Source: Nitrospirota bacterium (GTDB lineage: Bacteria; Nitrospirota; Thermodesulfovibrionia; UBA6902; DSMQ01). From it: DNA of 64,000 nt. A model generated the notes under the pieces. The model saw only the letters and a program-made list of their open reading frames with translations, did not search any database and was not told the origin of the DNA. Location: positions 4,333 through 68,332 of the forward strand of contig JACRGX010000061.1 in assembly GCA_016212185.1 (NCBI GenBank), written 5' to 3'. Made by a program: the position numbers and the translations under genes. Below are positions 1,416 through 29,214 of the stretch, in pieces; position 1 is the first letter of the stretch; every line of letters begins with the position of its first letter.

Positions 1416-1487
<72 letters not shown>

Positions 1488-1502
1488 GTTAAAGACAGTT
1501 AT

Positions 1503-1527
1503 TAGTGAATAGTATTTAGTGAACAGT
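1503..1527. repeat. 25-bp direct repeat, right copy flanking tRNA-Gly
   Basis: tagtgaatagtatttagtgaacagt, matching 1321..1345. Confidence 0.7.
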
Positions 1528-1623
1528 TGTTAGTAAAGAACTATTCACTGTTTACTGTCGTTATAATTGTATTATTCTTTGCAGTATTATTTCAAGCACT
1601 GCATTTCTGTTATAATAAAAACC

Positions 1624-4296
1624 ATGTTTAATATTTTGACAAAAATAATGGGCACTAAGAACGAGCGTGAAATTAAGAGGCTCTCCTCTATCGCAGAGAC
1701 CATAAATTCTTTTGAATCATCAATTTCCTCCCTTGACGACAGCGGGCTTAAGGCTAAGACAGATGAGTTCCGCAGGAGGCTGGAGTCAGGGGAAAGCCTT
1801 GATGATATTCTGCCTGAGGCGTTTGCAGTTGTAAGAGAGGTTTCGCACAGGATTTCGGGCATGCGGCATTTTGACGTCCAGCTTATCGGGGGCATAGTAC
1901 TGCATGAAGGCAGGATAGCAGAGATGAAGACAGGAGAAGGAAAAACGCTGGTTGCAACGCTTTCTGTCTATCTTAATGCACTGGATGGTCACGGTGTTCA
2001 TGTTGTCACTGTCAACGATTATCTTGCCAAGAGAGATGTGCAGTGGATGGGTTCTATTTATCACTTTCTCGGACTTTCAGTAGGCACAATCCAGCATGAT
2101 GCGTCTTTTTTGTTTGACCCTTCCTATCATCAGCCTGACAGGAGGTTATCCGGTTTAAGGCCTGTGACAAGGAAAGAGGCATATCTGGCCGATATTACCT
2201 ATGGCACAAATAATGAATTCGGATTTGATTATCTCAGGGACAACATGAGGTATGACATAAATGATTATGTCCAGAGAGAGCTGAACTATGCGATTGTTGA
2301 CGAGGTTGACAGCATCCTTATTGACGAGGCCAGGACTCCGCTTATCATCTCAGGACCTTCTGAGGAGTCAACGGACAAATACTATAAAATTGATAAGATA
2401 ATACCTAAACTCTCAAGAGAGACCGATTACATCATAGACGAAAAACTGAAAACAGTTACCCTGACAGAGGAAGGCAATATAAAGGTTGAGAGGCTTTTGG
2501 GCGCGGGCAATTTGTATGACCCTTCCAACATAGAGCTGGTCCATCATGTCAATCAGGCATTAAGGGCGCATACCCTTTTCAGGCTGGATGTGGATTATGT
2601 TATCAAGGACAATGAGGTGATAATAGTTGATGAATTTACAGGACGCCTTATGCCGGGCAGACGCTGGTCAGACGGGCTTCATCAGGCGATTGAGGCAAAG
2701 GAAGGCGTAAAGATAGCCAGTGAAAACCAGACTCTCGCAACCATTACATTTCAGAACTATTTCAGGATGTACAAAAAACTTGCCGGAATGACGGGCACTG
2801 CCGAGACTGAGGCTGAAGAGTTTGCAAAGATTTATAACCTTGACGTGCTGGTTGCGCCGACTAATAAACCGATGATAAGGGTTGATAATCCTGATTCCGT
2901 TTATAAATCCGAGCGCGGTAAATTTAATGCGGTCATTAATGAGATTGCCGACTGCCACAAGAGGGGACAGCCTGTGCTGGTAGGCACCATATCAATAGAA
3001 AAATCAGAGGTGCTCAGCGCGATGCTCAGAAAAAAAGGAGTACCGCATTCAGTCCTGAACGCAAAGTATCATGAGAGAGAGGCTGAGATTGTTGCGCAGG
3101 CTGGACGGAGCCGGTCTGTGACAATAGCAACCAACATGGCCGGAAGGGGCACGGATATTGTGCTCGGAGGCAATCCTGAAGGCCTTGCAAGAGACATCCT
3201 CGGTGATAAAAAAGATTTTACAAACGAGGAATATGAGGCGGCGCTGAATAAGGCAAAAGAACTCTGCATGAAGGATAGGGAAAAAGTTTTATCTCTGGGC
3301 GGGCTTCATATCCTCGGCACAGAGAGGCACGAATCAAGAAGGATTGACAATCAGCTCAGGGGGCGTTCAGGCCGGCAGGGGGACCCGGGCACGTCAAGGT
3401 TTTATCTTTCACTTGAAGATGACCTGATGAGAATCTTCGGCTCAGAAAGAATTGCGGGGCTTATGGGAAGGCTCGGGATGGATGAATCCCAGCCTATTGA
3501 GCACAGGATGATTTCAAAGGCCATAGAAAATGCGCAGAAAAAAGTTGAAGCGCATAATTTTGACATCAGAAAACACCTTATTGAATATGATGATGTGATG
3601 AATAAGCAGAGGACTGAAATTTATTCTTTCAGGCGCGACATACTCGCAGGCGAAGGCTTGAAGGATAAGATTATTGAAATGTCGGAAAATGTTTTAAATG
3701 AGTTTTTAAATGCCTATTGTCCTGATGATAAGCACCCTGAGGAGTGGGATATGAAGGGGCTTAAAGAAACCCTTTACGGATACTTTTCCATAACGACGAA
3801 TGCAGAGGCGCAGACGTCTGATGAGCTTTATGAAAAACTCGTTCAGGGCATAAAACTTGCATATGAGAACAAAGAAAAAGAAATCAGCGCAGATATGTTC
3901 AGGCAGTTGGAAAGATACATACTCCTTCAGGTGGTTGACTCGCAGTGGAAAGACCATCTCCTGGGAATGGATCATTTAAAGGAGGGCATAGGTCTGAGGG
4001 GTTATGCCCAGAGAGACCCGCTTGTGGAGTACAAAAAAGAGGCGTTTGAAGTCTTTGCAGGAATGAGCGACAGGGTCGCATCTGAGGTTGTAAACAGGCT
4101 GTTTAAGGTTCAGATTGCAAGAGAAGAAAACGTGGAGAGAAAGATGGTCTTGAAACCGGCAAGGGTGCAATACGGCAGGGGAGAAGGCGGTGAAAAGCCC
4201 CAGACTGTTGTCAAGGACAGGAAAATCGGCAGGAATGACCCGTGCATCTGCGGCAGCGGTAAGAAGTACAAAAAATGCTGCGGGGTAAATGCGTAG
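1624..4296 (+). CDS. secA: preprotein translocase ATPase SecA
   Basis: Full-length SecA. The N-terminus [20 protein letters not shown], the motor domains, and a C-terminal zinc-binding tail [18 protein letters not shown] are all present. The track ORF starts at an upstream TTG at 1567; the ATG at 1624 fits the SecA N-terminus. Confidence 0.95.
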
Positions 4297-4349
4297 TGGC
4301 AGGGTTAAAACAGTAAAGAAAGCTATTCAACAAGGCAGGTAGTTTTTCT

Positions 4350-4375
4350 GTCATTCCCGCCTGCGCAGGAATGAC
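4350..4375 (+). terminator. REP-like hairpin gtcattcc..ggaatgac downstream of secA
   Basis: 8-bp perfect arms with extra inner pairing, 54 nt after the secA stop. No clear U-run follows, so a terminator role is weak. It is related to the hairpin at 1355..1376. Confidence 0.3.
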
Positions 4376-4449
4376 GTATAGTGGTAATTTATTAAATTTT
4401 TAGCGGACACTACTGTTTAAGAATATTTTTTCCCGGTAACGGCAGATTA

Positions 4450-4490
4450 TTGACAAATAAAATAGTAGCATATATCATATATATGACAGG
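4450..4490 (+). promoter_or_regulatory. putative sigma-70 promoter and palindromic operator upstream of the RHH antitoxin gene
   Basis: TTGACA at 4450-4455, a 17-nt spacer, then TATCAT at 4473-4478. The quasi-palindrome catatatcatatatatg overlaps the -10 element. RBS AGGAGG precedes the ATG at 4499. Confidence 0.4.
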
Positions 4491-4498
4491 AGGTATTT

Positions 4499-4729
4499 AT
4501 GAAAAGGACTACTATATTTGCGGATGCTGATTTGCTCAATGAAATCAAAGAGGTCTCAAAAGAAGAAAACAGGAGCGTGGCGGAGATTATAAGAGAGGCG
4601 ATGCTGAGTTACATTAAACGAAAGAGATTTAAGAAGAAAAGGGTGTCTTTTGTTGGTATTGGAGACAGCGGCAGGAAAGACATAGCAGGACGGCATGAGG
4701 AATTGCTTTGGAAAAAAGCTATAAAATAG
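4499..4729 (+). CDS. ribbon-helix-helix (CopG/VapB-like) antitoxin
   Basis: 76 aa. The N-terminal RHH fold pattern is TTIFADADLLNEIKEVSKEENRSVAEIIREAMLSYI. It overlaps the downstream PIN gene by 22 nt. Confidence 0.6.
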   Translation: MKRTTIFADADLLNEIKEVSKEENRSVAEIIREAMLSYIKRKRFKKKRVSFVGIGDSGRKDIAGRHEELLWKKAIK

Positions 4730-5142
4730 ATACTGCTGTTTGCGATACAGGCATTATTTATGCGCTTGCAGATAAAAAAGATTCCTGGCATAAACAAACT
4801 GTTGATTTTGTAAGCTCTTATAAAGGCAGATTGATTATTCCTTCTACGGTAATACCCGAGGCCTGTTATCTCTTAAACACATATTTAGGCTCATTTGCTG
4901 AAATAGAATTTATTAATTCATTAATCAACAAGGAACTCAGTATTGAACATTTCAGCGTTGTTGATTTAAATTGCTGCATTGAGTTATTAAAAAAATACGA
5001 AGATTTTAATATTGGATTTGTGGATGCCTCTATAATAGCAATTTCCGAGAGGTTGAATGTCTGTAAAATAGTGACAACTGACAGAAAACACTTTTCTGTG
5101 ATAAAGCCCAAGCATTGCGGCGCCTTTAGTTTGCTGCCGTGA
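4708..5142 (+). CDS. PIN-domain protein (VapC-like toxin)
   Basis: 144 aa. Acidic residues are spaced as in PIN nucleases (VCDTG..., ...DASIIAISE..., ...IVTTDRKHF). The gene is translationally coupled to the upstream RHH gene. Confidence 0.55.
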   Translation: MEKSYKIDTAVCDTGIIYALADKKDSWHKQTVDFVSSYKGRLIIPSTVIPEACYLLNTYLGSFAEIEFINSLINKELSIEHFSVVDLNCCIELLKKYEDFNIGFVDASIIAISERLNVCKIVTTDRKHFSVIKPKHCGAFSLLP

Positions 5143-5213
5143 TTGAAATGCATTTAACAAATAAAACTTTTTATTGACTCCTAATTAAAGTTTTTGAAAT
5201 TTCCAATTGACTC

Positions 5214-6794
5214 CTACAACTTCCCCAGCGTCCTAATAAGCGCCTCGGCTTTTTTGAGCGTTTCGTAATATTCCTTTTCCGGTTCGGAATCCGCCACAAT
5301 ACCGGCGCCTGCCTGCACATAGGCGATATTGTTTTTAATCACAAAGGTCCTGATGATAATGTTTAAATCCATGGTCCTGTTAAAACCGATGTATCCGAAT
5401 GAACCTGTGTAAGGTCCTCTTGCAACCGGCTCAAGCTCGTCAATTATTTCCATGCACCTTACCTTTGGGACTCCGGTAATGGTCCCTCCGGGGAATGCAG
5501 CCCTTATTGCGTCAAAGCAGTCTCTGCCTTTTGCAAGCGTGCCGCTGACATTGGAAACTATATGAATCACATGCGAGTAGTCCTCTGTCGCCATGAATTC
5601 ATCAACAAGGACCGAGCCGTAGTCGGAAATTCTGCCGAGGTCATTTCTCTCAAGGTCAATGAGCATCAGATGCTCTGCGCGTTCTTTTTCATTAAGCAGG
5701 AGTTCTGCCCGCATTTTTTTGTCGCCTCCGGCATCTGCCCCCCTTGGTCTTGTGCCTGCAATCGGTCTTGTTTCAACAGTATTCCCCTGAATCCGCAACA
5801 GTCTTTCAGGAGATGAACTTACTATGTGATAATCTCCCATGTTCAGATAACCTGCAAACGGGGATGGATTTATCTCTTTTAATTGCAGATAAATCTGCCA
5901 TGGCGTTGTATTCCCTATGTCAGCCGAGACCCTCTGCGAGAGATTTGCCTGGAAGATGTCCCCTGCCTTGATGTATTCTTTTGCTTTTCTGACAATATTC
6001 ATATATTTTTCTTTGCCCATTTCATGGTGAATCTCAATTTTTTTAAGGCGTTCAAATTGTTTAAATTGTTCAAGCTGTTCAAACGAATTTAAACTATTTG
6101 AACTAATTTTTTTATATAGCGCATTTATCTTTTCACACGCCCTGTCGTAATAACTGCCATAATCAGATTGGGGATTAGGCTTTGGGGATTGGATATTGGA
6201 CTTTTGACTGTTTGCCCCCTTGAACGATTGAACGCTTGAACTGAGTATTTGCTCCGCTCCATGGCATGAGATGATAAAAACCTTTTTATCTTTATGGTCA
6301 AAGGCAATCACGGTATCAAAGAATAAAAAGTGTGCATCAGGGATTTTAAGGTCATCAATCACGGTCTTCGGCAGGCGCTCAAAGTACTGGACAAAATCAT
6401 AACTCAGAAGACCCACTGCACCGCCGATAAAAGGAGGAAGATTTGGAGGAGAGTCAATCTTACAGCATGTGAGCAGTTCCTTTAATGTTTTAAGAGGTAC
6501 GGTGGTGTTAAATATTCTTTGTCCCTTTGTCCCTTTGTCCCTTTGCCCCTTTGTTTCTATTTCCACAACCCCGTCTTTTACTTTAAAAATTAAAAACGGC
6601 TCAATTCCGGCAAATGAATACCGCGCAATTTTTTCAGGGCCCTTTGCGCTTTCAAGCAGGAAACTGTATGGGCTTTCCAGAGTATTGTAAATTTCGTGAG
6701 GCGGCGTAAAAGGCAGTTGAGCATAAACAGGATATATTATCCCTGTTTTAGCGGCTTCTATGAAATTATTTTTGTCAGGAAGGATATTAAGCAT
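5214..6794 (-). CDS. chorismate-binding enzyme, anthranilate synthase component I family (TrpE/PabB)
   Basis: 526 aa. The C-terminal chorismate-binding domain is GTRPRG...LLLNEKERAEHLMLIDLERNDLGRI...PGGTITGVPKVRCMEIIDELE. An LLES motif (SFLLESA) near the N-terminus favours TrpE. No glutamine amidotransferase partner is adjacent. The gene carries two in-frame repeat insertions. Confidence 0.8.
   Translation of the reverse strand: MLNILPDKNNFIEAAKTGIIYPVYAQLPFTPPHEIYNTLESPYSFLLESAKGPEKIARYSFAGIEPFLIFKVKDGVVEIETKGQRDKGTKGQRIFNTTVPLKTLKELLTCCKIDSPPNLPPFIGGAVGLLSYDFVQYFERLPKTVIDDLKIPDAHFLFFDTVIAFDHKDKKVFIISCHGAEQILSSSVQSFKGANSQKSNIQSPKPNPQSDYGSYYDRACEKINALYKKISSNSLNSFEQLEQFKQFERLKKIEIHHEMGKEKYMNIVRKAKEYIKAGDIFQANLSQRVSADIGNTTPWQIYLQLKEINPSPFAGYLNMGDYHIVSSSPERLLRIQGNTVETRPIAGTRPRGADAGGDKKMRAELLLNEKERAEHLMLIDLERNDLGRISDYGSVLVDEFMATEDYSHVIHIVSNVSGTLAKGRDCFDAIRAAFPGGTITGVPKVRCMEIIDELEPVARGPYTGSFGYIGFNRTMDLNIIIRTFVIKNNIAYVQAGAGIVADSEPEKEYYETLKKAEALIRTLGKL
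6052..6110. repeat. TTGTTCAA-family degenerate tandem block, in-frame inside trpE/pabB
   Basis: ttcaaattgtttaaattgttcaagctgttcaaacgaatttaaactatttgaactaat. On the coding strand it is translated as a low-complexity EQLEQFKQFERLKKIEI segment. Confidence 0.7.
6528..6562. repeat. octanucleotide tandem repeat (TTTGTCCC)x4, in-frame inside trpE/pabB
   Basis: tttgtccctttgtccctttgtccctttgcccctttg. It encodes ETKGQRDKGTKGQR in the minus-strand reading frame. Confidence 0.8.
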
Positions 6795-7085
6795 TAAAAA
6801 TTTTTGCTCTTTCTAACAAACGATGTCATTCTCCAGTCGATGCGACTCCTTGCGGAGATCCGCTTTGGACTTGACCAGGGAATCCAGAAATTATCTCCTC
6901 ATACAAATCTTTCCTTAATCTTGTAGCCCCGTTCAGTTACCTGCTTAACTGCTTCAGGATTTATTGCCATGATTTTAATATAAATAATAGTTATTTTAGC
7001 CTGCTATTGCAAGCACGAAATAAGAAAATTAAAAATACGCCGGAAATACATTTGAATTTGTAAAATTGTTCAGACAAATATCTTT

Positions 7086-8039
7086 TTGTTTATGATAAAA
7101 TCTATCAATGGAGAATCAGTGGAAAAAATTATTCTGAAAACAGAAATGCCTGATGTGGGCGTTCCGCGGTGCGGAAAGGTGAGGGACCTTTACGACCTTG
7201 GCGAGCATCTGCTTCTTGTTGTAACCGACAGGGTTTCCGCCTTTGACGTTGTTCTGCCAAACGGCATACCCGGAAAGGGAAGGGTGCTTACGCAGATTTC
7301 CATTTACTGGTTCAGGCAGATGGAAGATATCATCAAAAACCATATAGTTGCAACTGATGTCAGGGATTTCCCTGAAAAACTCCGTAAATATCATGAGATG
7401 CTTGAAGGCAGGAGCATGCTTGTGAAAAAAGCAAACCCCATGCCTGTGGAATGTATTGTCAGGGGATATCTTTCGGGTTCCGGATGGAAGGAATATAAAG
7501 AAAAAGGCGTTGTATGCGGCATAAAACTTCCTGCCGGGCTTGTGGAATCATCCAAGCTCCCTGAACCGGTTTTTACTCCGAGCACTAAGGCGGATGAAGG
7601 GCATGACATTAATATATCTTTTAATGAAATGAAACGCATTGTCGGAGATGAGACTGCGGAAAGATTGAGGAGTGCGAGCATTAAGATTTATTCAAAGGCA
7701 AGGGATTTGGCTGAGAAAAAAGGCATAATAATTGCCGACACAAAATTTGAATTCGGCATTTACCCCGCTAAAAACTCATTGATTTCAAGCGGGGTGAACT
7801 GCGGTAAGTTAATCCTGATAGACGAACTTCTGACGCCGGATTCATCCCGCTTCTGGTCCTTAAGAGATTATGCGCCGGGCAAAGGGCAGGACAGCTTTGA
7901 CAAGCAGATTGTCAGGGATTACCTCCTCACGCTTGACTGGGATAAGAGTTATCCCGGGCCTGAACTCCCTGAGGAAATTGTTTCAAAGACGGCACAGCGA
8001 TATAAAGATATACTTAAGGTATTAGCCGCAACGGTTTAA
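7086..8039 (+). CDS. purC: phosphoribosylaminoimidazole-succinocarboxamide synthase (SAICAR synthetase)
   Basis: 317 aa. Conserved segment [43 protein letters not shown]. Confidence 0.9.
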
Positions 8040-8063
8040 TTTTAAACATTTTTAAGCAATAAA

Positions 8064-10070
8064 ATGGATAAATTTAAAAAAGCCGTTTTCCCGCTTACTG
8101 TAACGATTGCCTATTTGTTATTTATATTTTATTCCGGCTTTCTGAAGACAAAACCTGTTTTAATTCCATGGATTTCAATTTCAGGCATTATAATATTTAC
8201 AGGCTTATACCGTTATCTGAGCTACATAAAAAAAGGTTTTCCTTTCTCAGGATGGAAAAGCCTTGAACTCCTTCTGCCGCTGCTTCTTCTCATTGAGACG
8301 CTTATCAGGTTTTTCAATAAGCCGTTATTGCACCTTGCCTATATTTCGGTCATCGTTATTATTTCAGGTTACTTCCCGTTTAAAATTATTATTTCGTGCA
8401 TAGCGGCAATTTTTCTGCTGGGGATACCGTCTCAGTGGTGGAACAAGGGATATTTCTCAGAAGAAAGCGGGAGCTATTTTTTTATTCTGGTCACAGGCAT
8501 AATTTCCTACTACATTTCGCATAAAAGACTTAAGATATCAAAAAAGGCGGTTGAAGACCTTGAAAAACTGAAGAACAGCGCCCTGAATCTTGATGCATCA
8601 ACCGAAGGGTCGCTTTTTAACGAAGACAGGTTTTCCCACCTTGTTAAGTCGGTTCTTGACACAGAAAGGGATTTAAAGGAAATGCTTTTTCTTATCAAAA
8701 AAATAATTAACACTGATGCAGTCGCACTGTTTATGCTGGAGGGGGATAGTCTTGTATTAAAGGCGTCAACAGAGGATAAATATTCAAAATCCGCATATCA
8801 CGGCGAAGGGTATTTGTTAAGTGTAATAAAAGGGAAAAAATCACTTATTCAGCCAAGATTTAAATACAGCCTTTTTGACATTGAAAATACAGCATCAAAG
8901 GATGCAGGGTCTTCGCTGTGCGTGCCTGTGTTTGACGGCAGTGTTTCTGTCGGAGTGCTTGAGATGGTCAGCAACGGGGAATCGGCATTCGGCGCGCATG
9001 AAGAAGATATTGCCGCCAGTTTTGCCGGTCAGATAGGACAGACCATCGGGAAGGCAAGGAGTTATGTTGAGGTGGAGCGTTTTGCAAAGGGATTTAAATC
9101 ACTTCATGAGGCTAGCAGGTCTTTCGGCACTTCTTTAAGGGTTGAGGAGATAGCGGAAAAACTTGTGGAGCTTGTCTTTGGGATGGTGAATTCATCGGCA
9201 GTCGGTTTTTTCATTCCTGATAAGGGAGAACTCAAGGTTGTTGCAAAAGAAGGGTTTGAACCTGAGGATGAGAGCTTTTATTCAAAAGGAACTTATTTTG
9301 ATTTGATTGTCAAAAACAAGCAACCTTTGCATTTTTCCCATCTGGAGGGGAAGCGGGGAGTGTATCCGTTCAGGATTCCTGATGCAAAGACTTTTTTGGG
9401 AATTCCCATAATGTCCTCCGGCAATGATGTGTTAGGCATACTTGCCGTTATTTCACGCGAGGCAGATGCAATAAGCTCTTTTCACGGGCACTTTCTGAGC
9501 ATTATGGCTGACCAGGCTGCATTGTCCATGACCAATGCAAGGCTTCACCATGAAGTTGAAAAACTTGCCATGACAGATGGACTCACAAGGCTTTATAACC
9601 ATAAACATTTTTATGAGAGGCTCGGAGAGGAATTTCAGAGATACGAAAGGTTCCCGCAGCCGATTTCTCTGCTGGTTATGGATATTGACTATTTCAAAAA
9701 AATAAACGATGTCCACGGGCATCCTGCCGGTGATGCGGTCCTTCTCGGCCTGGCGGCGATACTTAAAAAAACACTCAGGGGCATAGATATCATAGCAAGA
9801 TACGGCGGTGAAGAATTTGCTGCGGTGCTGTTGAATACAGAGACCCCGCGCGCCAAAAAGATCGCAGAGAGGCTAAGGGTCAAAGTCATGAATACGCCTT
9901 TTGCTGTTGATGGAAACGATTTAACAATAGCCTTAAGCATTGGCGTCGCCACATATCCGCATGATGCGGAGAATAAGGAAGACCTTATCAATAAGGCGGA
10001 CCGGGCGCTTTATTACGCAAAAGACAACGGTAGAAATCAGGTATGCCTGTGGAAGGATATCGGGAAATGA
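8064..10070 (+). CDS. membrane-anchored GAF-domain diguanylate cyclase (GGDEF)
   Basis: 668 aa. Multiple N-terminal TM helices and two GAF-like regions are followed by a GGDEF domain with an intact active site RYGGEEF and the metal-binding motif LVMDIDYFKKINDVHGH. Confidence 0.85.
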   Translation: MDKFKKAVFPLTVTIAYLLFIFYSGFLKTKPVLIPWISISGIIIFTGLYRYLSYIKKGFPFSGWKSLELLLPLLLLIETLIRFFNKPLLHLAYISVIVIISGYFPFKIIISCIAAIFLLGIPSQWWNKGYFSEESGSYFFILVTGIISYYISHKRLKISKKAVEDLEKLKNSALNLDASTEGSLFNEDRFSHLVKSVLDTERDLKEMLFLIKKIINTDAVALFMLEGDSLVLKASTEDKYSKSAYHGEGYLLSVIKGKKSLIQPRFKYSLFDIENTASKDAGSSLCVPVFDGSVSVGVLEMVSNGESAFGAHEEDIAASFAGQIGQTIGKARSYVEVERFAKGFKSLHEASRSFGTSLRVEEIAEKLVELVFGMVNSSAVGFFIPDKGELKVVAKEGFEPEDESFYSKGTYFDLIVKNKQPLHFSHLEGKRGVYPFRIPDAKTFLGIPIMSSGNDVLGILAVISREADAISSFHGHFLSIMADQAALSMTNARLHHEVEKLAMTDGLTRLYNHKHFYERLGEEFQRYERFPQPISLLVMDIDYFKKINDVHGHPAGDAVLLGLAAILKKTLRGIDIIARYGGEEFAAVLLNTETPRAKKIAERLRVKVMNTPFAVDGNDLTIALSIGVATYPHDAENKEDLINKADRALYYAKDNGRNQVCLWKDIGK

Positions 10071-11643: not shown

Positions 11644-11985
11644 AGCAGGCATAAATACCCTCTAAATTCCAGGAAAACAGTAAAATTATTGAATGTCATG
11701 CTGCAAATTTTGTGGTTTTTGCTCAGGACTATTGAATAGAAGGCAGCATGACTTTAATGTACTGCCCTGAAATTCTTCAGACATCCATCCCTGCTTGTCT
11801 TACACGCAGGGATGAACGCTTGAAGCGGCAGGTATAGGTATCTGAAAAAGCTTTAGAGCAACACCGCTGAATGTCATGTTGCCTTTTTGGGATGTTGGTT
11901 TAAAGAGAAGACTTTAAAGTTTGCAACATGACTTGTTATTATTATTGTTGCGTTCTAAAGATTTTGAAGGTATCTATACCTGTCG
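11644..11985. repeat. family-2 structured dispersed repeat (~340 bp), full copy 1
   Basis: About 90% identical to 29254..29573 over its whole length. It contains the internal inverted repeats gtcatgctgc/gcagcatgac and atgtcatgttgc/gcaacatgac. It sits between the RHH gene and the ampG stop. Confidence 0.8.
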
Positions 11986-14145: not shown

Positions 14146-15597
14146 TTATTTTATTATATCCGCCGTGAAAGTATAAAGCTGCGAATTTTTCCACGCATCT
14201 TTCGGAAGCCCTGCCTTAAGCGAGACATTTTCAAGGAATGCGTTTACATCCCATTTATATTCCGTTGCGACCTGCGGAAGCAGTATGCCTGAATTTTCTC
14301 CGCTGACAATAAACAGCCCGTGAACGCCAATTTTTATATCTTTAATATTTTGTAAAGCTACAAGCGGCGAGAGCACGGTTACCTCCACTTCCATATCATT
14401 TAATTCCTCTGCTCTCACAGGCGAGAACCTGTAATCTTTTGATGCCGCCGATACCGCATTTCTGATTACAGACTGATACAGGGGCATGAAGGGCTGAATA
14501 TTGCCTATACAGCCGCGGAGATTGCCCTGCCTGTTTATAGTGACAAAGGTGGCTCCGTTTGCCATCAGCCTCGGGTCTTTTGTTTCAGCCTGCAAGACTT
14601 CGTTGTGTTTGACATAATGGAGAATTGTATTTTTGGCAAGTGAAAGGATCTCTTTTTTTTGCGCCTCTGTAAGCGTGCTCATGTACAAACCCATTGCAGA
14701 ATATCCTACGACCCGGTTTTTATCATTAGTCACATCTCCTGAGTTTGCGTATTTATAAACAACGCCGTTCGTGGCGCCTAATGCCCTTGCAACCGCCATG
14801 GTGAACATCACGGGAAATCCTCCGCACATCTCTCCCTGACCGCTTGCCATAAGCCTCTCAACCTCTTCTGTGGACAACCTGCTTATTGCGTCAATGGTTT
14901 TGCTATCCATATTGACAGCGGTTTCATAGTCATGGTAATGAGAAAGGTCAGTGCTTGCAATGATTATTGCCTTTTCATTTTTCCTGAGTATTTCTGTCAG
15001 CTTTTCCGTAAGGAATTGAAAAGACTCCCTTGTCGGCGAGCCGATAAGAATGGGGACGATGCTGAAATTTTTCAATGACTGCTGAAGAAATGGCATCTGC
15101 ACCTCAAGCGAATGTTCTTTTTCAAAGGCAGCAGGGTAAAAGGCGACATTTGCCTTTTCGTTTATCAGGGATTTTGCGATTTTTTTATTAATCGCTATTT
15201 TCCCGAGAGGCGTCTTCATACTGCCTTTGGTATATACGGACGCGCCTGTAAAGGTACTGTAATGGCTTGGGCCTATGAGAATGACTGTATCAACATCACG
15301 TTCTTTTAAATGCCTGTAAGAGTAGGCGGCGACATGCCCTGAAAACTCATACCCTGCATGCGGGGATATGAGCGCGATTAGCCTGCCGTCAACTGGTTTG
15401 TATTCAGCCGCTGAAAGAAAGCCGTCAACCATTTCCTTCAGGGTCTTGGCATCAGCCGGATAAAAGGCCCCTGCAACAGATGGTTCTTTTACCTTTCCCT
15501 CACATCCGGAAACAATGAACAGCAAACAGCAGACAGTGAACAGTAAACAGTGAACGGTGAACAGTGAACTGTTTACTGTGAACTTACTAAGTCTCAT
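14146..15597 (-). CDS. AmmeMemoRadiSam system fusion protein: Memo-like (protein B) N-terminal domain plus AMMECR1 (protein A) C-terminal domain, with lipoprotein-like signal peptide
   Basis: The Memo signature is SVAGAFYPADAKTLKEMVDGFL...LIALISPHAGYEFSGHVAAYSY. The AMMECR1 signature is RLMANGATFVTINRQGNLRGCIGNIQPFMPLYQSVIRNAVSAASKDYRFSPV. The N-terminus MRLSKFTVNSSLFTVHCLLFTVCCLLFIVSGC ends in a lipobox-like VSGC and is encoded by CAGTGAA-type heptamer repeats. Confidence 0.8.
   Translation of the reverse strand: MRLSKFTVNSSLFTVHCLLFTVCCLLFIVSGCEGKVKEPSVAGAFYPADAKTLKEMVDGFLSAAEYKPVDGRLIALISPHAGYEFSGHVAAYSYRHLKERDVDTVILIGPSHYSTFTGASVYTKGSMKTPLGKIAINKKIAKSLINEKANVAFYPAAFEKEHSLEVQMPFLQQSLKNFSIVPILIGSPTRESFQFLTEKLTEILRKNEKAIIIASTDLSHYHDYETAVNMDSKTIDAISRLSTEEVERLMASGQGEMCGGFPVMFTMAVARALGATNGVVYKYANSGDVTNDKNRVVGYSAMGLYMSTLTEAQKKEILSLAKNTILHYVKHNEVLQAETKDPRLMANGATFVTINRQGNLRGCIGNIQPFMPLYQSVIRNAVSAASKDYRFSPVRAEELNDMEVEVTVLSPLVALQNIKDIKIGVHGLFIVSGENSGILLPQVATEYKWDVNAFLENVSLKAGLPKDAWKNSQLYTFTADIIK
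15514..15585. repeat. degenerate (CAGTGAA)n / (TTCACTG)n heptanucleotide tract
   Basis: aacagcaaacagcagacagtgaacagtaaacagtgaacggtgaacagtgaactgtttactgtgaac. It forms the signal-peptide coding region of the Memo-AMMECR1 fusion. Confidence 0.8.
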
Positions 15598-15792
15598 CTG
15601 TATTCCTCCAGAACATAGCTTTCTTGGGTTCGGATTTTACAGCGGGTTTAATCTTTTTATAAAAAAGGCTGACGAGCCCGCCTAAAAGAAAGAAACCTAA
15701 AAAATCTCTCCTTGTCATGATATTAACCCCCAAACCTTTTCTGAAGCAGACATAAATTCCCTCAAAAATTTTAGAATGCAAAAATTTATTAA

Positions 15793-15953
15793 GTTTTCAA
15801 TACCCAATTCCGAAAGTCTTCGGGACCGTGGGGTTTCCTTATACTTCCCTCCACCTTGACGGGGGAGGGCGAGGGTGGGGGTGATTAAGATGCTGTTTCC
15901 ACCCTCCCCTTCATCCCCTCCCGTCAAGGGAGGGGAGACTTTAGGATACCCTG
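15793..15953. mobile_element. MITE-like GC-rich palindromic dispersed element, copy A (~160 bp)
   Basis: Near-identical to 32243..32404, and its core matches 25905..26020. It has long imperfect inverted arms cccttgacgggggagggcgagggtggggg / caccctcccc..tcccctcccgtcaaggg. It lies between the radical SAM gene and the Memo fusion gene. The track ORF 15715..16032 is just its translation. Confidence 0.8.
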
Positions 15954-15989
15954 CGATATTCGCCATTTCTCTAAAATTATTGCTATCCC

Positions 15990-16964
15990 TCATCCCCATA
16001 CCCCCGGAATGACAGCACCGCAGAATCTGCACCTGCCTCCGGAAATATTATTCCGCATAACTGCATAACCGATTCTCGCAATCAGAAGCTGTTTGCAGTG
16101 ATGACAGTATGTGTTCTCAGCATCGCTCCGCATATTGCCGATATAAACGTATCTGAGCCCTGCATCCATTGCCGCTGAGTGCGCATCCCTCAGCGTCTCA
16201 ACAGGTGTAGGGGGCAGATTGGTTAATTTATAATACGGGAAAAACCTTGAAAAGTGTATCGGGATGTCGGCGCCGAGGTTTTTAACAATCCACCTGCACA
16301 TCTCCGTTATAGTTTTTACATCATCATTAAGAGTAGGGATAACGAGATTGGTAATCTCAAGCCATACACCTTCCCGTCTAAGCGTTACAAGAGTATCCAG
16401 CACGGGTTTCAGCATTCCCCCGCATATCCTGTTGTAAAAATCCTCTGTAAATGCCTTCAGGTCCACGTCTGCCGCATCCATATATTTTGAAAGCTCCCTC
16501 AGCGGTTTTTCATTAATATAACCGCATGTGTGCATAGTGTTTTTCACATTAAAATTCCGGGCGATTTTAGCAGTATCAAACATGTATTCATAAAATACAG
16601 TCGGCTCAGTGTAGGTGTAGGTTATGGTCCTGCAGTTGTTGAACATTGCCTGCCTTACGACTTCGTCAGGAGGCAGGTCAAGGTTATCGGCGTCTTCAGG
16701 CTTTGCCTGAGATATCTGCCAGTTCTGGCAGAACTTGCATCCGAGCACACAGCCTGCAGTTGCAATTGAAAATGCCGTTGTTGCGGGAAGGAAGTGATAA
16801 AACGGCTTTTTCTCAATGGGGTCAATGGCGACTGAACACGGCTTTCCGTACACAAGGCTGTAAAGGACGCCGCCTTTGTTAATCCTTGCCCTGCATCCGC
16901 CAACCTGATAATCCTCAAGCAGGCATTCCGTGGGGCAAAGCTCGCACAGCACCTTCTTGCTCAT
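15990..16964 (-). CDS. AmmeMemoRadiSam system radical SAM enzyme
   Basis: 324 aa. A CxxxCxxC-type cluster lies in TAGCVLGCKFCQNWQIS, with an extra N-terminal Cys motif CELCPTEC. It sits beside the Memo/AMMECR1 gene, as is typical for this three-component system. Confidence 0.85.
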   Translation of the reverse strand: MSKKVLCELCPTECLLEDYQVGGCRARINKGGVLYSLVYGKPCSVAIDPIEKKPFYHFLPATTAFSIATAGCVLGCKFCQNWQISQAKPEDADNLDLPPDEVVRQAMFNNCRTITYTYTEPTVFYEYMFDTAKIARNFNVKNTMHTCGYINEKPLRELSKYMDAADVDLKAFTEDFYNRICGGMLKPVLDTLVTLRREGVWLEITNLVIPTLNDDVKTITEMCRWIVKNLGADIPIHFSRFFPYYKLTNLPPTPVETLRDAHSAAMDAGLRYVYIGNMRSDAENTYCHHCKQLLIARIGYAVMRNNISGGRCRFCGAVIPGVWG

Positions 16965-19377: not shown

Positions 19378-19448
19378 GTTTGACTCTTTATGTTTTATAC
19401 AACGGCATACATGTCCTTAAAACTTTAAGAATACAACAATGATTATTA

Positions 19449-19553
19449 TCTGTCATGCTGCAAAAATTTTTAAGTATTTGCCCTGAGCTATGTGTAAAAA
19501 GGCAGCATGACACTAATGTGTTGCCTTAAAGTTTTGCAGACATATATACCGTT
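19449..19553. repeat. family-2 structured repeat, short deletion derivative (copy 2)
   Basis: tgtcatgctgcaaaaattttt...ggcagcatgacactaatgtgttgcc shares the first hairpin module with 11644..11985 and 29254..29573. Confidence 0.6.
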
Positions 19554-21795: not shown

Positions 21796-21957
21796 CCAGC
21801 AGGGACGAATACCTTCATAATTTCAGGAAAACAGTAAAGATTCTTTAATATCATGCTGCAAATTTTGTGGTTTTTTCTCAGGACTACTGAATAGAAGGCA
21901 GCATGACTCTGATGTACTGCCCTGAAATTTCTCAGGCATTATTCCTGCTGACTAATG
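21796..21957. repeat. family-2 structured repeat, 5' half (copy 3)
   Basis: cagggacgaataccttcataatttcaggaaaacagtaaaga...gcagcatgactctgatgtactgccctgaaatttctcagg is about 90% identical to the first 160 bp of copies 1 and 4. Confidence 0.7.
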
Positions 21958-24876: not shown

Positions 24877-25827
24877 ATGGAAATGAACAGAACATTTTTT
24901 TATTCAGAGCCTGTTGATTCGGTTTTAGAACTCATTGGAAATACGCCTATGGTCAGAATCAACGAACTTGTCAGCAGTGATTCGGCGGAGATTTATGCAA
25001 AGCTGGAATTTTTCAATCCCTGTAAATCCATTAAGGACAGAATATGCTGTTCAATGGTTGAATCCGCAGAGCATCAGGGTAAAATCAGACCCGGAGACAC
25101 TCTTGTGGAGCCTACATCAGGCAATACCGGTATCGGCATGGCGTTTGTCTGCGCCGCAAAAGGGTACAAACTTGTTCTTACGATGCCTGAGACAATGAGC
25201 ATTGAAAGGAAGACCATGTTAAAGGCATTCGGCGCTGAATTAATACTTACCGAAGGCGGCAGGGATATGGCAGGGGCGGTTGAAAAGGCAGGGGAGTTGT
25301 CAAACGGGAAAGGGTATTTTCAGCCGCATCAGTTTATCAATCCTTTAAACCCTGAGACACATAGAAAAACCACGGCGCTTGAAATTTTGGAACAGATGTC
25401 GGGCATTGATGCCTTTGTGGCAGGCGTTGGCACAGGAGGAACAATAACCGGAGTAGGTGAAGTCCTCAGAAAAGAGTTTGGAAAGAGTGTAAGGATTATT
25501 GCTGTTGAGCCGGCAAAGAGTCCTGTTATTTCAGGCGGCAAACCCGGCTTGCATGAAATTCAGGGAATCGGGGCCGGATTTATTCCCGAGGTTTTAAACA
25601 AGGATATTATTGACGAGATTATTCAGGTTTCTGATGAAGATGCATATGAGGCAACAAGGAACCTGATACGCAGGGAAGGCATCCTCTGCGGCATTTCATC
25701 AGGCGCTAATTTTTTTGCGGCATTGAAAATCTCAGAGAGGCTCGGCAGGGGGAAAAAGGTTGTGACTGTTTTCCCCGATACGGGAGAAAGGTATCTGAGC
25801 ACAAGGCTTTTTGAGAGCGGTTTATAA
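24877..25827 (+). CDS. cysK: cysteine synthase A (O-acetylserine sulfhydrylase)
   Basis: 316 aa. PLP-lysine region LIGNTPMVRINEL...KLEFFNPCKSIKDRI and glycine loop TSGNTGIGMAFVCAAKGY. Confidence 0.85.
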   Translation: MEMNRTFFYSEPVDSVLELIGNTPMVRINELVSSDSAEIYAKLEFFNPCKSIKDRICCSMVESAEHQGKIRPGDTLVEPTSGNTGIGMAFVCAAKGYKLVLTMPETMSIERKTMLKAFGAELILTEGGRDMAGAVEKAGELSNGKGYFQPHQFINPLNPETHRKTTALEILEQMSGIDAFVAGVGTGGTITGVGEVLRKEFGKSVRIIAVEPAKSPVISGGKPGLHEIQGIGAGFIPEVLNKDIIDEIIQVSDEDAYEATRNLIRREGILCGISSGANFFAALKISERLGRGKKVVTVFPDTGERYLSTRLFESGL

Positions 25828-25904
25828 AATGTCATATGGTCAGGGTATAATATTTTCGCTCATTCTCGTAATCTGATATTTAACTCTTTAGTTCTCAGTG
25901 TCTC

Positions 25905-26020
25905 TACTAAACCCTCCCCCTTGACGGGGGAGGGTAAGGGTGGGGGTGATAAGATGTTATTTTCACCCTCCCCTACATCCCCTCCCGTCAAGGGAGGGGA
26001 GATTTCGGGATGCCCCGCGG
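25905..26020. mobile_element. MITE-like GC-rich palindromic element, truncated copy B
   Basis: ccctcccccttgacgggggagggtaagggtgggggtgataagatgttattttcaccctcccctacatcccctcccgtcaagggagggga matches the core of copies A and C. It lies between cysK and the cysM-like gene. Confidence 0.75.
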
Positions 26021-26051
26021 CTTGTTGCGGAGTGGTTTATTAAAATGTGAC

Positions 26052-26972
26052 ATGAAACAAAATAATATTATTAATACAGTCAGCCCTGACATCCTCGGCA
26101 CAATAGGCAGGACGCCGCTCATATGCCTGAATAGAATCACTGCTGGATTAAACAGGAATGTGAAAATTTACGCAAAACTTGAAAGTTACAATCCCGGCGG
26201 CTCTGTTAAAGACCGTGCGGCGTATCAGATGATAAAAGATGCGGAAGATGCCGGCAGCCTGACAAGAGACAAAATTATTATTGATTCAACTTCAGGCAAT
26301 ACGGGAATAGCATATGCCATGATTGCCGCGGTAAAGGGATACAGGGCGAGGATTATTCTCCCTAAAAATGCAAGTGTTGAGCGGAAAAAAATAATAATGG
26401 GATTTGGGGCGGAGATTGTCTATTCAAGTCCTTTTGAAGGCTCTGACGGCGCTATCAGGCTTGCGAGGGAGATTTACAATCAGGAGACTGACAGATATTA
26501 CATGCCTGACCAGTATAACAATCCCTCAAACTGGAAGGCGCATTACCTTACGACAGGCCCTGAAATTCTTGAGCAGACAAAGGGCAGGGTTACACATTTT
26601 ATTGCAGGACTTGGAACAACAGGGACCATTATGGGGACAGGAAAGGCATTGAAGGAATCTAATCCTGATATTCAGGTTATTGCAGTTGAACCTGACGATG
26701 CAATGCACGGAATAGAAGGGCTTAAATATATGAAAAACTCCATAGTGCCCGGAATTTATGATTCCGGTTTTCCTGATGAGACGATTTATGTAAATACGGA
26801 TGAGGCATATGATATAGTCAGGAAGATAATTACAATTGAGGGGCTGCCTGTCGGGCACTCCTCCGGCGCCGCTCTTGTCGGTGCGCTGCGCATTGCAAAA
26901 AAGATAGATAAGGGGATAATAGTTACCATATTCCCTGACGGCGGCGACAGATATTTGAGTCATGAGATATAA
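26052..26972 (+). CDS. cysteine synthase family protein, CysM-like
   Basis: PLP fold: IGRTPLICLN...KLESYNPGGSVKDRAAYQMI, STSGNTGIAYAMIAAVKGY. The track ORF start at 26010 runs into the MITE; the ATG at 26052 (MKQNN) is more likely. Confidence 0.75.
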   Translation: MKQNNIINTVSPDILGTIGRTPLICLNRITAGLNRNVKIYAKLESYNPGGSVKDRAAYQMIKDAEDAGSLTRDKIIIDSTSGNTGIAYAMIAAVKGYRARIILPKNASVERKKIIMGFGAEIVYSSPFEGSDGAIRLAREIYNQETDRYYMPDQYNNPSNWKAHYLTTGPEILEQTKGRVTHFIAGLGTTGTIMGTGKALKESNPDIQVIAVEPDDAMHGIEGLKYMKNSIVPGIYDSGFPDETIYVNTDEAYDIVRKIITIEGLPVGHSSGAALVGALRIAKKIDKGIIVTIFPDGGDRYLSHEI

Positions 26973-26985: not shown

Positions 26986-27064
26986 CTGTTTAACATTGTT
27001 TAAAAGGGGTTAAAACGATTTTAAACGGCGTTGAACGGTTTAAACTGCTTGAACTATTTGAATT
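26986..27064. repeat. TTGTTCAA-family degenerate tandem block
   Basis: attgttcaaactgtttaacattgtttaaaagg...gttgaacggtttaaactgcttgaactatttgaa. Confidence 0.7.
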
Positions 27065-27771: not shown

Positions 27772-28410
27772 TTATTCTGCAGGATTTGATTGCATGTCTT
27801 TCATTTTTTTTCTGAACCATCTGAGGATATCGTCATAAGACGGAGGTGTTACAAGGAATATCTCTATATCAGCCGGAAACTGCAGTTTTACACGGTCTTC
27901 ATCACGCATGATGAGCATTCCTGCCTCGCCGTCTGCAAGGTTGGTATTTATAACGCCCAAAATATGTGTCAGCCGTTTGTTTGAAAATTCCGTATAAAAC
28001 TCAAAGATTTTTGAAAAAACCTCCTGAGTCCGCACTACATTCAGGCAATTTGCCCAGTCCAGAAACGGCCCGAAGACCTCTTTGCTCTCAACCGGAAAAA
28101 GCTCAGCGCCTTCATCAACCTTTTTCTTAATAAGTCTGGCGGTCTGTTCATTAATCTCAGATAATGTTTTAAGGGCGTCATCCCCCTGAACATGTACGCT
28201 TTCGCAAAATATCTTTTTAATTTTTCCTGCCGCCTCAAGTTTTTCAGCCTGCGCCGTTGCCTCATCCCAGTATTTATTTACAAGCTCTTTATAATCCTCC
28301 GGTGCGTCTTTAACTATATATATGTTCGGCACACAATACAGTTTTCGCTTTTCTTTAAAGTTTTCAACAGCCGGTTTTTCAACCTGTCCAAGTTCAGCCA
28401 TAAAATTCAT
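27772..28410 (-). CDS. hypothetical protein
   Basis: 212 aa intact ORF with good coding periodicity. I recognise no family. Confidence 0.5.
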   Translation of the reverse strand: MNFMAELGQVEKPAVENFKEKRKLYCVPNIYIVKDAPEDYKELVNKYWDEATAQAEKLEAAGKIKKIFCESVHVQGDDALKTLSEINEQTARLIKKKVDEGAELFPVESKEVFGPFLDWANCLNVVRTQEVFSKIFEFYTEFSNKRLTHILGVINTNLADGEAGMLIMRDEDRVKLQFPADIEIFLVTPPSYDDILRWFRKKMKDMQSNPAE

Positions 28411-28437
28411 CCTCCTTTTTTGTATAATAATTCTAAC

Positions 28438-29214
28438 ATGAACGCCCTTGCTATTTTAACATCAGTGCCTTTTGAATCAAATATAATTCTCTCATGCCTG
28501 AAAAATATCCGTAAATTCAGGATGGCAGGAAAGGTTGTTTCTAAGGGCAGAATTGCAGGGCATGATATCTTACTTATGAACACAGGCATCGGGAAGGTTA
28601 ATGCCGCACACGCTGTAACTGCCCTTATTGAGCATTATCCGCTGAAGTGCGTTATCAATTCAGGCGCGGGCGGAGCTTATCCGCACTCAGTGCTTGCGGT
28701 TGGAGATATTGCAGTTGCGTCAAAGGAAATTTACGGGGATGAAGGAGTAATGTCTCCAGGCGGCTGGAAGGATTTGAGAGCAATCGGGATTCCGGTTGCG
28801 CAAGTCGGGAAGAAAAAATATTTCAATGAATTTCCATTGGACAAAAAATTTCTTAAAATAACTATAAATATTTTACGCATTACGCATCACGCATCACGTC
28901 CCTCCCCACTGCCCCCTCTCCCGATGTGTCGGGAAGGGGGGTGGGGGAGGGTGAAGTTAGGCAATTTCCTCACGCTGTCGTCTGTGACAGGCACGCATAA
29001 AAGAGCCATTGAGCTTGAAAAACGGTTTAATGCTATTTGCGAAAACATGGAAGGCGCTGCCATTGCCCATGTCTGCGCAATGTACAAGATTCCCATGCTT
29101 GAAATCAGGGGGATAAGCAATATTGCCGGCGTGCATGATAAGAGAAAGTGGAACCTAAAACTCGCCTCTGAAAATTGTCAGGATACAGTGCTGGAGATAA
29201 TTGCCGGGCTTTAG
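28438..29214 (+). CDS. mqnB: futalosine hydrolase / MTA-SAH nucleosidase family (MqnB-like)
   Basis: Nucleoside phosphorylase-I fold: ALAILTSVPFE..., GIGKVNAAHAVTALIE, VINSGAGGAY, EGAAIAHVC. The gene carries a ~90-bp in-frame GC-rich palindromic insertion. The track ORF start at 28192 is an upstream artefact. Confidence 0.65.
   Translation: MNALAILTSVPFESNIILSCLKNIRKFRMAGKVVSKGRIAGHDILLMNTGIGKVNAAHAVTALIEHYPLKCVINSGAGGAYPHSVLAVGDIAVASKEIYGDEGVMSPGGWKDLRAIGIPVAQVGKKKYFNEFPLDKKFLKITINILRITHHASRPSPLPPLPMCREGGWGRVKLGNFLTLSSVTGTHKRAIELEKRFNAICENMEGAAIAHVCAMYKIPMLEIRGISNIAGVHDKRKWNLKLASENCQDTVLEIIAGL
28872..28955. repeat. in-frame insertion: (CGCATCA) heptamers plus a GC-rich palindrome inside mqnB
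   Basis: cgcattacgcatcacgcatcacg is followed by tccctccccactgccccctctcccga-tgtg-tcgggaaggggggtgggggaggg. It is translated as RITHHASRPSPLPPLPMCREGGWGRVKLG. Confidence 0.75.

Follow-up and report, generated by a model that had tools for sequence, protein, structure and literature searches.

The window analysed here, 64,000 nt of contig JACRGX010000061.1 from a Nitrospirota bacterium, carries a GC-rich, hairpin-forming repeat in the spacers between three pairs of neighbouring genes. Pfam matches identify the neighbours as Radical_SAM and a Memo+AMMECR1 fusion for copy A, TolB and an OmpA-family Pal for copy B, and two PALP genes of the cysteine synthase type (cysK and a cysM-like gene) for copy C. 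These are the three spacers named in a first-pass annotation of the sequence, which had also called A and B near-identical. Both observations hold: the two copies share 95% identity across 168 nt, AT-rich parts included. When the window was searched with a hidden Markov model (HMM) trained on 22 related copies, it yielded exactly three copies, all of them on the + strand; copies of the source organism were counted within this window. The forward scores (Table 1) are about three times those on the reverse strand (50-58 bits, with 58 for B), which indicates that the element is directional and not merely a palindrome.

The elements measure 163-193 nt in the window and contain no open reading frame (ORF) with a protein-family match. 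Their GC content of 53-58% (65% in the core) compares with 43% for the window. For the 16-mer CCTTGACGGGGGAGGG, three occurrences were counted where 0.04 would be expected, and none of 100 shuffled sequences reached three. For comparison, loci were fetched from other genomes and metagenomes and labelled L001 onwards. Copy B is 93% identical to the copy in L127 across 193 nt, and 21 loci were recovered when metagenomes were scanned for the 3' core together with the spacer. In the fetched element-matching loci, from other Nitrospirota metagenome-assembled genomes (MAGs) and from metagenomes, only the element aligns to the window and the flanks never do. The architecture is identical in independent NCBI, JGI and ENA assemblies.

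Architecture of the element

Comparison of about 25 copies revealed a fixed order of parts: a left end (TATTAAATTTTCAATA), a hairpin H1, a spacer (GGTKTCCTTATASTT), a 5' GC-rich hairpin, GGGTGGGGGTG, an AT-rich loop of ~16 nt, CACCCTCCCC, a 3' GC-rich hairpin, a second spacer (AGAYTTTAGGATA), a hairpin H2 and a right end (AGGTTCATT). The element had initially been taken to be ~160 bp long, leaving H2 and the right end outside; its length is ~190 nt. The long inverted repeat described at that stage does fold strongly but makes up the central module only, not the whole element. The small 5' hairpin is present in A and B, yet it is not a fixed module, as TCCCGAAAGCCTTCGGGA is optional, nested in the loop of H1, and found in H2 in L124. 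The third copy, described as truncated, exists but is not cleanly cut: its left side has decayed and a remnant of H1 (..CAGTGTCTCTACT) is still visible.

The left end has the consensus TATTAA(A/G)TTTTCAATA, or TTTAATCTTGCAATT in subfamily 2, also written TATTAA(A/G)TTTTCAATACCCC or TTTAATCTTGCAATTCCC. The right end reads AGGTTYATT followed by variable bases. Nearly every copy is preceded at its 5' side by TATT^AA.. or TTT^AA.. (the caret marks a junction). The termini AAATTTTCAATA and AGGTTCATT are not complementary, i.e. there are no terminal inverted repeats (TIRs), and TTAA is repeated at the right in only 2 of ~18 distinct copies.

H1 and H2 are hairpins of one type in direct orientation: the outer stem is CCCY, the inner stem covaries freely and the loop, (T)CT(C)TG, is conserved. 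Examples are H1 CCCCACAG-TCTCTG-CTGTGGGG with H2 CCCCGCCG-TCTCTG-CGGCGGGG and, in subfamily 2, CCCTGTAG-CTTG-CTACAGGG with CCCCGCAG-CTTG-CTGCGGGG; the loop type is common to both hairpins of one element. Across 29 distinct H hairpins, 95.3% of cells are paired against 82.0 +/- 1.3% after shuffling, and four of the eight pairs change on both sides (36 cells, 11.1 expected); neither value was reached in 500 shuffles. Slid controls pair at only 37-61%. Since the inner stem varies while pairing and loop are kept, it appears to be a folded single strand that is recognised, not a double-stranded site. Pairing between the outer spacers is poorly kept (62%). The GC-rich core is 90-94% paired and nearly invariant; because its pairs hardly vary, it is uninformative on structure.

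The constant part is the H1/H2 frame, as illustrated by L135, where two copies of 120-131 nt have a core collapsed to a single hairpin. The element is best filed as a mosaic of a lineage-specific direct hairpin pair and a pan-bacterial GC-rich twin hairpin. Smaller modules are nested in it. The mini-hairpin TCCCGAAWGCYTTCGGGA occupies the H1 loop in copies A and B, L127, L128 and L138 and the H2 loop in L124, and other small hairpins interrupt L132, L134, L014 and L125. In L134 the right end of one element directly adjoins the left end of the next. L125 (2869-3093) and L137 (3825-3989) hold the same insertion site from two samples and differ by several internal insertions and one deletion, which shows fast turnover of insertions and deletions inside the hairpins.

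A tetranucleotide match was also observed at the left end. In copy B, AATA just 5' of the H1 stem (32249-32252) is the reverse complement of the left flank TATT (32237-32240), and the match recurs at the same positions in other subfamily-1 copies; the analogous pair at H2, GATA and CATT, does not fit. In IS608-type elements a guide tetranucleotide beside the hairpin pairs with the cleavage site. Two other identities for H1 and H2 were considered and rejected. Double-stranded tyrosine-recombinase sites, suggested by an 8-6-8 layout, are contradicted by inner arms that change while pairing is kept and by a spacer ranging from 4 to 6 nt, both of which favour recognition of a hairpin over that of a sequence, and CRISPR-like repeats by the presence of only two repeats ~125 nt apart, with no array.

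Insertion sites and their empty counterparts

None of the three sites is occupied by the element in relatives with flanking proteins of 78-96% identity; the copies are therefore recent insertions and not conserved parts of the operons. The clearest case is the tolB-pal spacer, which measures 215 nt in the window against 51-77 nt in three relatives (Pal 78-86% identical). The empty site in L143 reads GCTTTTAACTCCT^ATTTAAGATACGG and the filled site GCTTTTAACTCGT^ATTAAATTTTC...GGGGAGGTTC^ATTTAAGATACGG (in short, ..CTCGT^ATTAAATTTTC...GGAGGTTC^ATTTAAG). Alignment to L143 places the insertion as a 186-nt block at 32241-32426 with a 3-nt ATT ambiguity and no clear duplication. The junction fits equally well with AAATTTTC...GGTTCATT inserted just 3' of TATT, and can be written CTC(C/G)TATT^element^TAAGATACGG, the one clean empty site. 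The tolB stop codon TGA (32425-32427, - strand) now lies in the right end of the element; relatives have TAG at the same codon.

Site A lacks the element in L147 (radical SAM 94% identical; same MAG as L014) and in L149 (83%). In L148 (95%) it holds a copy of a different repeat family. At site C the two PALP genes overlap by 4 nt in L150 (96%) and by 8 nt in L151 (81%), with no element. Here the window has a 224-nt spacer, which contains the element, additional AT-rich sequence and a direct repeat (17-19 nt) of the right end. The first unit of this repeat, GGTTTATAAAATGTCA, supplies the stop codon of cysK and could be a remnant of an earlier or tandem copy. A further rearrangement of site C is found in L166.

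The elements also distort gene calls, as had been pointed out early on. The ORF at 15715-16032 has no Pfam match, and the 5' extensions of the pal and cysM-like genes are false. The true pal start at 32209 comes with a lipobox and a ribosome-binding site (RBS), its homologues being 201 aa long. The cysM-like gene starts at 26052; from there, its product matches a 306-aa database protein (P0241) at 100% identity along the whole length. Immediately upstream of the Memo-AMMECR1 gene lies a 43-aa ORF, MTRRDFLGFFLLGGLVSLFYKKIKPAVKSEPKKAMFWRNTDET, whose conservation in L147, L148 and L149 makes it a probable genuine small gene at the AmmeMemoRadiSam locus.

Table 1. Coordinates of the repeat copies, their parts, the flanking genes and other repeats in the window
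Feature	Position	Strand	Remarks
Copy B, full element	32237-32429	+	HMM 185 bits; between tolB and pal
H1 of copy B	32253-32283	+	CCCCAT...CTGTGGGG; coordinate check, fold
Optional mini-hairpin TCCCGAAAGCCTTCGGGA in H1 of copy B	32258-32275	+	Same in H2 loop of L124
Core of copy B	32297-32385	+	5' hairpin 32297-32319; GGGTGGGGGTG 32323-32333; AT-rich loop; CACCCTCCCC 32350-32359
3' core hairpin of copy B, CCCCTCCCGTCAAGGGAGGGG	32365-32385	+	
H2 of copy B, CCCCGCCG-GCTCTG-CGGCGGGG	32399-32420	+	Terminator-like; H1/H2 covariation
Right end of copy B, AGGTTCATT	32421-32429	+	Holds tolB stop on - strand
Copy A	15787-15966	+	HMM 155 bits, model positions 2-168; radical SAM/Memo spacer
H1 of copy A	15803-15833	+	
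Core of copy A	15847-15935	+	
H2 of copy A, CCCTGCGATATTCGCCAT	15949-15966	+	Decayed
Copy C	25879-26041	+	HMM 117 bits, model positions 39-184; cysK/cysM-like spacer
H1 of copy C	25886-25908	+	Decayed
Core of copy C	25912-25999	+	
H2 of copy C	26013-26032	+	Weakened
Right end of copy C, TGGTTTATT	26033-26041	+	
Right-end-like GGTTTATAAAATGTCA	25818-25836	+	Direct repeat of 26032-26050; gives cysK stop TAA
tolB	32425-33684	-	Flanks copy B
pal	31598-32209	-	Flanks copy B; keeps own RBS, start 32209
AmmeMemoRadiSam radical SAM gene	15990-16964	-	Flanks copy A; other flank is small ORF and Memo-AMMECR1 gene (-)
Small ORF, 43 aa	15587-15718	-	Overlaps start of Memo-AMMECR1 gene
cysK	24877-25827	+	Flanks copy C
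cysM-like gene	26052-26972	+	Flanks copy C
Second repeat family	11663-11982, 19421-19550, 21818-21946, 29267-29575		Half copy at 15740-15786
Heptamer arrays	1307-1534, 15510-15586, 31477-31518, 37968-38005, 40673-40714, 43111-43166, 45139-45176		

Mobilisation of the element

We think it fairly probable that the element is a non-autonomous mobile repeat of the repetitive extragenic palindromic (REP) and bacterial interspersed mosaic element (BIME) kind, similar to REP doublets forming hairpins (REPINs): a polar, non-coding mosaic of ~190 nt, mobilised in trans, probably through single-stranded DNA hairpins. An enzyme encoded elsewhere would recognise H1 and H2 in single-stranded DNA, the best model being an HUH/Y1-type transposase such as a REP-associated tyrosine transposase (RAYT) or the TnpA of insertion sequences (IS) of the IS200/IS605 type. 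Direct subterminal hairpins, absence of TIRs, a small duplication or none, and a short 5' flank of fixed sequence are hallmarks of this group. The element may have moved into AT-rich spacers beside (T)ATT with no duplication or one of at most 3 bp, bringing the GC-rich core along as a separate, far more widespread module at its centre. Effects on the host, namely new stop codons, very stable intercistronic RNA structure and false ORFs, would then be by-products, and copies would be retained mainly in the orientation that keeps the terminator-like H2 out of the mRNA. Such a single-strand mechanism acting in trans is backed, short of proof, by the anatomy and by one clean junction.

Several observations weigh against this interpretation. 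Neither the window nor the ~1.2 Mb of fetched loci has a Y1 transposase, RAYT or other transposase near any copy. In tblastn of IS200, IS608 and E. coli RAYT sequences against the window and L001-L149, the sole find was a 20-aa IS200 fragment in L099 that has nothing to do with any copy, and there was no RAYT-like match below E=0.9; RAYTs are usually single-copy in a genome. An autonomous IS with the same ends was likewise found neither in the window nor in the ~1.2 Mb of loci, and the plasmid collection gave no match. L135 carries two + copies and one - copy within 6 kb, a mixture that misfits strictly strand-specific insertion, and the ORFs between its two inverted copies are ordinary host genes (ankyrin, cupin) with no transposase among them. 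Of the three comparisons with empty sites, a single one yields a junction free of ambiguity, A lying beside another repeat and C being rearranged, and at tolB/pal a 3-bp ATT target duplication is inseparable from no duplication. The covariation of H1 and H2 is equally compatible with selection at the RNA level. Finally, the orientation bias is merely suggestive: in co-directional gene pairs, nine independent copies are antisense and two sense (duplicates removed, copy B added by hand; binomial p ~0.07). GC skew tracks the direction of the genes and is no guide to the replication strand.

A GC-rich core shared across bacteria

The core consists of two inverted hairpins, CCCTCCCCC-TTGAC-GGGGGAGGG and CCCCTCCC-GTCAA-GGGAGGGG, with TTGAY as the consensus of the 5' loop. 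Half forms and collapsed single-hairpin forms exist. Its 20-mer CCCTCCCGTCAAGGGAGGGG is found exactly in more than 120 loci from ~14 phyla among the matches listed for species-representative genomes. The taxa among these matches comprise many Desulfobacterota (including Geobacter and Geomonas), Nitrospirota, Nitrospinota, anammox Planctomycetota, Spirochaetota, Armatimonadota, WOR-3, Stahlbacteria, Omnitrophota, Verrucomicrobiota, Bacteroidota, Dehalococcoidia, Methylomirabilota, and Gamma- and Betaproteobacteria. The 20-mer is also present in 14 viral contigs. Throughout, the order of the core arms is constant and the outer context depends on the lineage; many of the 20-mer loci have contig breaks at the repeat.

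Two further arrangements were seen. One of the viral contigs, L162 (IMG/VR 3300005261_000056), holds seven short Geobacter-type cores within 8.5 kb (1423-9937), about one per intergenic spacer and in both orientations. A permuted form, with the 3' arm preceding the 5' arm, occurs in different phyla (L016, L018, L019, L026, L033, L038, L062, L068, L086, L095 and L096). It reads TCACCCTCCCC-hairpin A-spacer-hairpin B-GGGTGAGGGG with a conserved spacer and could fold as an outer stem around two hairpins.

A recurrent partner of the core is a gene for a DUF559 protein. All three DUF559 ORFs in the 20-mer loci lie exactly in the central loop, between the arms GGGTGGGGG and (T)CACCCTCCCC, and they come from three lineages: Nitrospinota (L010), Gammaproteobacteria (L012, reversed) and Desulfuromonadaceae (L118), with PF04480 E values of 1e-37 to 1e-42. 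Among 100 arm pairs 85 are short, and loops of 250-500 nt with a family-matching ORF hold DUF559 only. Starting from the protein instead gave one further DUF559 locus, seen in the samples L167 and L168, where a high-GC organism shows the same architecture. The loop ends of the short Geobacter-type cores resemble both ends of the DUF559 insert in L118. These findings, from a small sample not ascertained in a single way, suggest that a DUF559-carrying element gave rise to the short cores as ORF-less derivatives. In the literature searched on DUF559, we found no link to flanking or inverted repeats.

One could extend this to the whole repeat, which would then be, through its core, an ORF-less derivative of a selfish DUF559 element whose Vsr-like PD-(D/E)XK nuclease drives the spread, for example by nicking the folded arms and repair-mediated copying. 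The position and exclusivity of the DUF559 genes, their recovery in a protein-first search and the matching loop ends speak for such an origin. We nevertheless consider it unlikely for the element as a whole. Only four distinct examples are at hand; none has H1/H2 ends, none stems from the lineage of the window, and there is no DUF559 gene in the window. DUF559 could merely have landed in a favoured insertion spot. The polar H1/H2 frame, the constant part of the element, is left unexplained. A narrower version limited to the core is possible, if still doubtful: the twin hairpin would be the terminal repeat pair of an unrecognised selfish class whose complete form carries a DUF559 nuclease in its loop, and whose ORF-less derivatives have spread or been exchanged over ~14 phyla and some viral contigs and ride in lineage-specific carriers such as the H1/H2 frame. 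It is tempting to speculate that the G:T wobbles kept in the folded arms are natural substrates of a Vsr-like nickase. If this were true, DUF559 would gain a function and a pan-bacterial repeat family so far merely catalogued would be explained.

Inverted-repeat transposition and host function

The element had originally been described as resembling a miniature inverted-repeat transposable element (MITE), and it is indeed multicopy, non-coding, folding and mobile. A classical MITE would be the deletion derivative of an IS with a DDE transposase, moved by cut-and-paste at its TIRs and flanked by a TA or TTAA target duplication. In keeping with this, most of the element makes up a long, imperfect inverted repeat. 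Both copy B and L132 have TTAA on either side, and in the two subfamilies alike the left TTAA stands at a fixed distance from H1. Moreover, the core does occur in carriers with true outer inverted repeats, of the type GGTAATTGCAAAAGT...ACTTTTGCAATTACC in Geobacteraceae and CTATTCAG...CTGAATAG in Desulfopila. Against a classical MITE, the window element has ends that do not form inverted repeats, the loops of H1 and H2 are direct and not inverted, and pairing of the outer spacers is not conserved. A TTAA duplication, suggested by the two flanks of copy B, was rejected because most copies have no TTAA on the right; at copy B itself, a TTAA or TA duplication needs an extra 1-nt indel. A classical MITE is thus quite unlikely.

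A third possibility is that the host keeps the element as a functional RNA, be it an mRNA stabiliser, a site for RNase III/E, an attenuator or terminator, or a small RNA gene. The predicted folds are very stable on both strands: for RNA of copy A, -87.4 kcal/mol (z -6.0) on the + strand and -76.2 kcal/mol (z -4.3) on the - strand, which bears out the folding first suspected. The structure on the tolB-pal mRNA strand reaches -111.6 kcal/mol (z -5.95). As single-stranded DNA, copy B folds at -53.4 kcal/mol (z -6.3) and prefers five local hairpins. H2 followed by AGGTTCATTT scores as intrinsic-terminator-like on the + strand. Together with the covarying H1/H2 stems, the biased orientation relative to flanking genes, some conserved G:U pairs in the core and the effects of REPs elsewhere on mRNA stability and termination (PMC3733652), these features would fit an RNA function.

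On the other side, the same operons do without the element in relatives that are 78-96% identical. H2 of copy A and H1 of copy C have decayed, and internal indels and nested insertions are many. The strand asymmetry of the core is weak: in 40 of 54 copies the + strand is the more stable one, with a mean difference of 1.8 kcal/mol. No promoter-like site was found in the region of copy B. An Rfam search, proposed at the outset, gave no family at the gathering threshold over the element and only two tRNAs in the window; a permissive scan added microRNA-precursor matches at 12-35 bits, where 34.7-160 bits are needed. We therefore regard retention as a host RNA element as very unlikely. A role as stabiliser, attenuator or small RNA is an unlikely reason for the element's existence, given that relatives' operons work without it and that A and C are decaying. 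Consequences at the RNA level for the three operons are, in contrast, likely, though as by-products. Copy C is the only window copy in sense orientation to its flanking genes, and its H2 is weakened; sense insertions inside operons may be polar and then be removed or decay.

Chance similarity, low-complexity G/C runs or an assembly artefact can be set aside as next to impossible: the arms are compositionally simple (C runs broken by T, G runs broken by A or T), but the 16-mer counts, the A/B identity that continues through AT-rich parts, the alignment of the element alone, the agreement of independent assemblies, and more than 120 exact 20-mers among the matches listed against about one expected in 596 Gb of uniform sequence all refute it.

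Other repeats in the window

The window is rich in further repeats (Table 1). A second interspersed family of ~120-310 nt and 63-94% identity contains AAGGCAGCATGAC..TAATGTACTGCCCTGAAAT. In L148, one of its copies fills the orthologous spacer between the radical SAM and Memo genes; in the window, a half copy adjoins copy A. Tandem heptamer arrays (ACAGTGA and relatives) occupy many intergenic spacers, and GAGTTAA-type arrays are found in the tolB-pal spacer of relatives; they are comparable to direct repeats reported for Geobacter bemidjiensis (PMC2996986). A different GC-rich hairpin, CCCTCCCCAC..CCCCCTCTCCCGAtgtgTCGGGAAGGGGGGTGGGGGAGGG (28903-28952), lies in frame inside the PNP_UDP_1 phosphorylase ORF (28192-29214, +), where it adds ~17-20 residues (..SRPSPLPPLPMCREGGWGRVK..) and is spanned by the Pfam match; it resembles insertions of repeats in frame that have been reported from Geobacter. 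Three intergenic regions (51316-51416, 55370-55540 and 26988-27014) contain repeats based on TTGTTCAAGATTGTTCAAAG / GTTTAACATTGTTCAA.

Implications

Elements of this kind matter for annotation, as they yield false ORFs and false 5' extensions and supply stop codons to real genes, here tolB and cysK. They also break metagenome assemblies, many matches lying at contig ends. Recent clean insertions into essential operons such as tolB-pal could be used to gauge the effect of a hairpin of about -100 kcal/mol on intercistronic RNA. An almost invariant core 20-mer across distant phyla lacks any explanation so far, and the recurrent association of the core with DUF559 provides a testable hypothesis for the spread of transposase-less REP-like repeats and for the role of the very abundant DUF559 proteins.

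Comparison with known systems

Correia elements of Neisseria are ~100-200 nt long, are inserted in operons and co-transcribed, form long hairpins, and create or remove regulatory signals. They possess terminal inverted repeats of 26 bp and duplicate TA, and neither feature is seen in the element described here.

Another likeness exists with non-autonomous derivatives of IS200/IS605 elements (palindrome-associated transposable elements, PATEs), which, like IS608 and ISDra2, have direct subterminal hairpins, no TIRs, no clear duplication and a short conserved 5' flank. The Nitrospirota element has similar direct subterminal hairpins, lacks TIRs and a clear target duplication, carries TATT or TTT just 5' of its left end, and leaves ~9-10 nt between the right hairpin and the boundary. 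However, a TnpA/TnpB partner was not found near the copies, the cleavage sites are putative, nearby copies have mixed orientation (L135), and in place of remnants of a transposase the centre holds a GC-rich palindrome.

A search of the literature for the exact sequence of the element gave no match. The nearest published relatives of the core are the 'palindromic multicopy nucleotide sequences' of G. bemidjiensis, catalogued without interpretation in at least 100 copies (Table S6 and Figure S2 of Aklujkar et al. 2010, PMC2996986). Their consensus, ...CCCCCTCCCCTTGACGGGAGGGGGYYRGGGGGTGGG...CCCCACCCCYRCCCCCTCCCGTCAAGGGGAGGGGG, together with a half form, has the architecture of the window core and most of its sequence. 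Table S6 lists ...CCCTTGACGGGAGGG... and ...CCCTCCCGTCAAGG... in the same arm order, with inner arms GGGGGTGGG and CCCCACCCC. The Geobacter copies differ in having no H1/H2 frame, another loop and other outer repeats. The same genome has intergenic heptamer-type direct repeats and a repeat family inserted in-frame in genes. For the Geobacter sequences that work is a catalogue only and gives no mechanism, cross-phylum distribution or link to DUF559.

The overall organisation is most reminiscent of REPs, BIMEs and REPINs, whose palindromic units likewise occur singly, as inverted doublets forming a long hairpin and in mosaics with other motifs (Bertels & Rainey 2011, PMC3116915; Di Nocera et al. 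2013, PMC3733652). Both are high-copy, non-coding, mainly located in intercistronic or 3' spacers and variable between relatives, with some copies in genes. No RAYT flanked by units was found in the window or the fetched loci, and some REP superfamilies (CGTC) are also without a known dedicated transposase (PMC3733652). In contrast to REPs, the element has no terminal GTAG or CGTC tag and its core fits neither superfamily (PMC3733652): the only GTAG lies within the stem of H1, in one subfamily, and CGTC is found across the junction of stem and loop in the 3' hairpin. It further differs in being a polar ~190-nt mosaic of two directly repeated hairpins and an inverted GC-rich doublet. Whereas REPs are typically lineage-specific, its core sequence is shared exactly across ~14 phyla among the matches listed.

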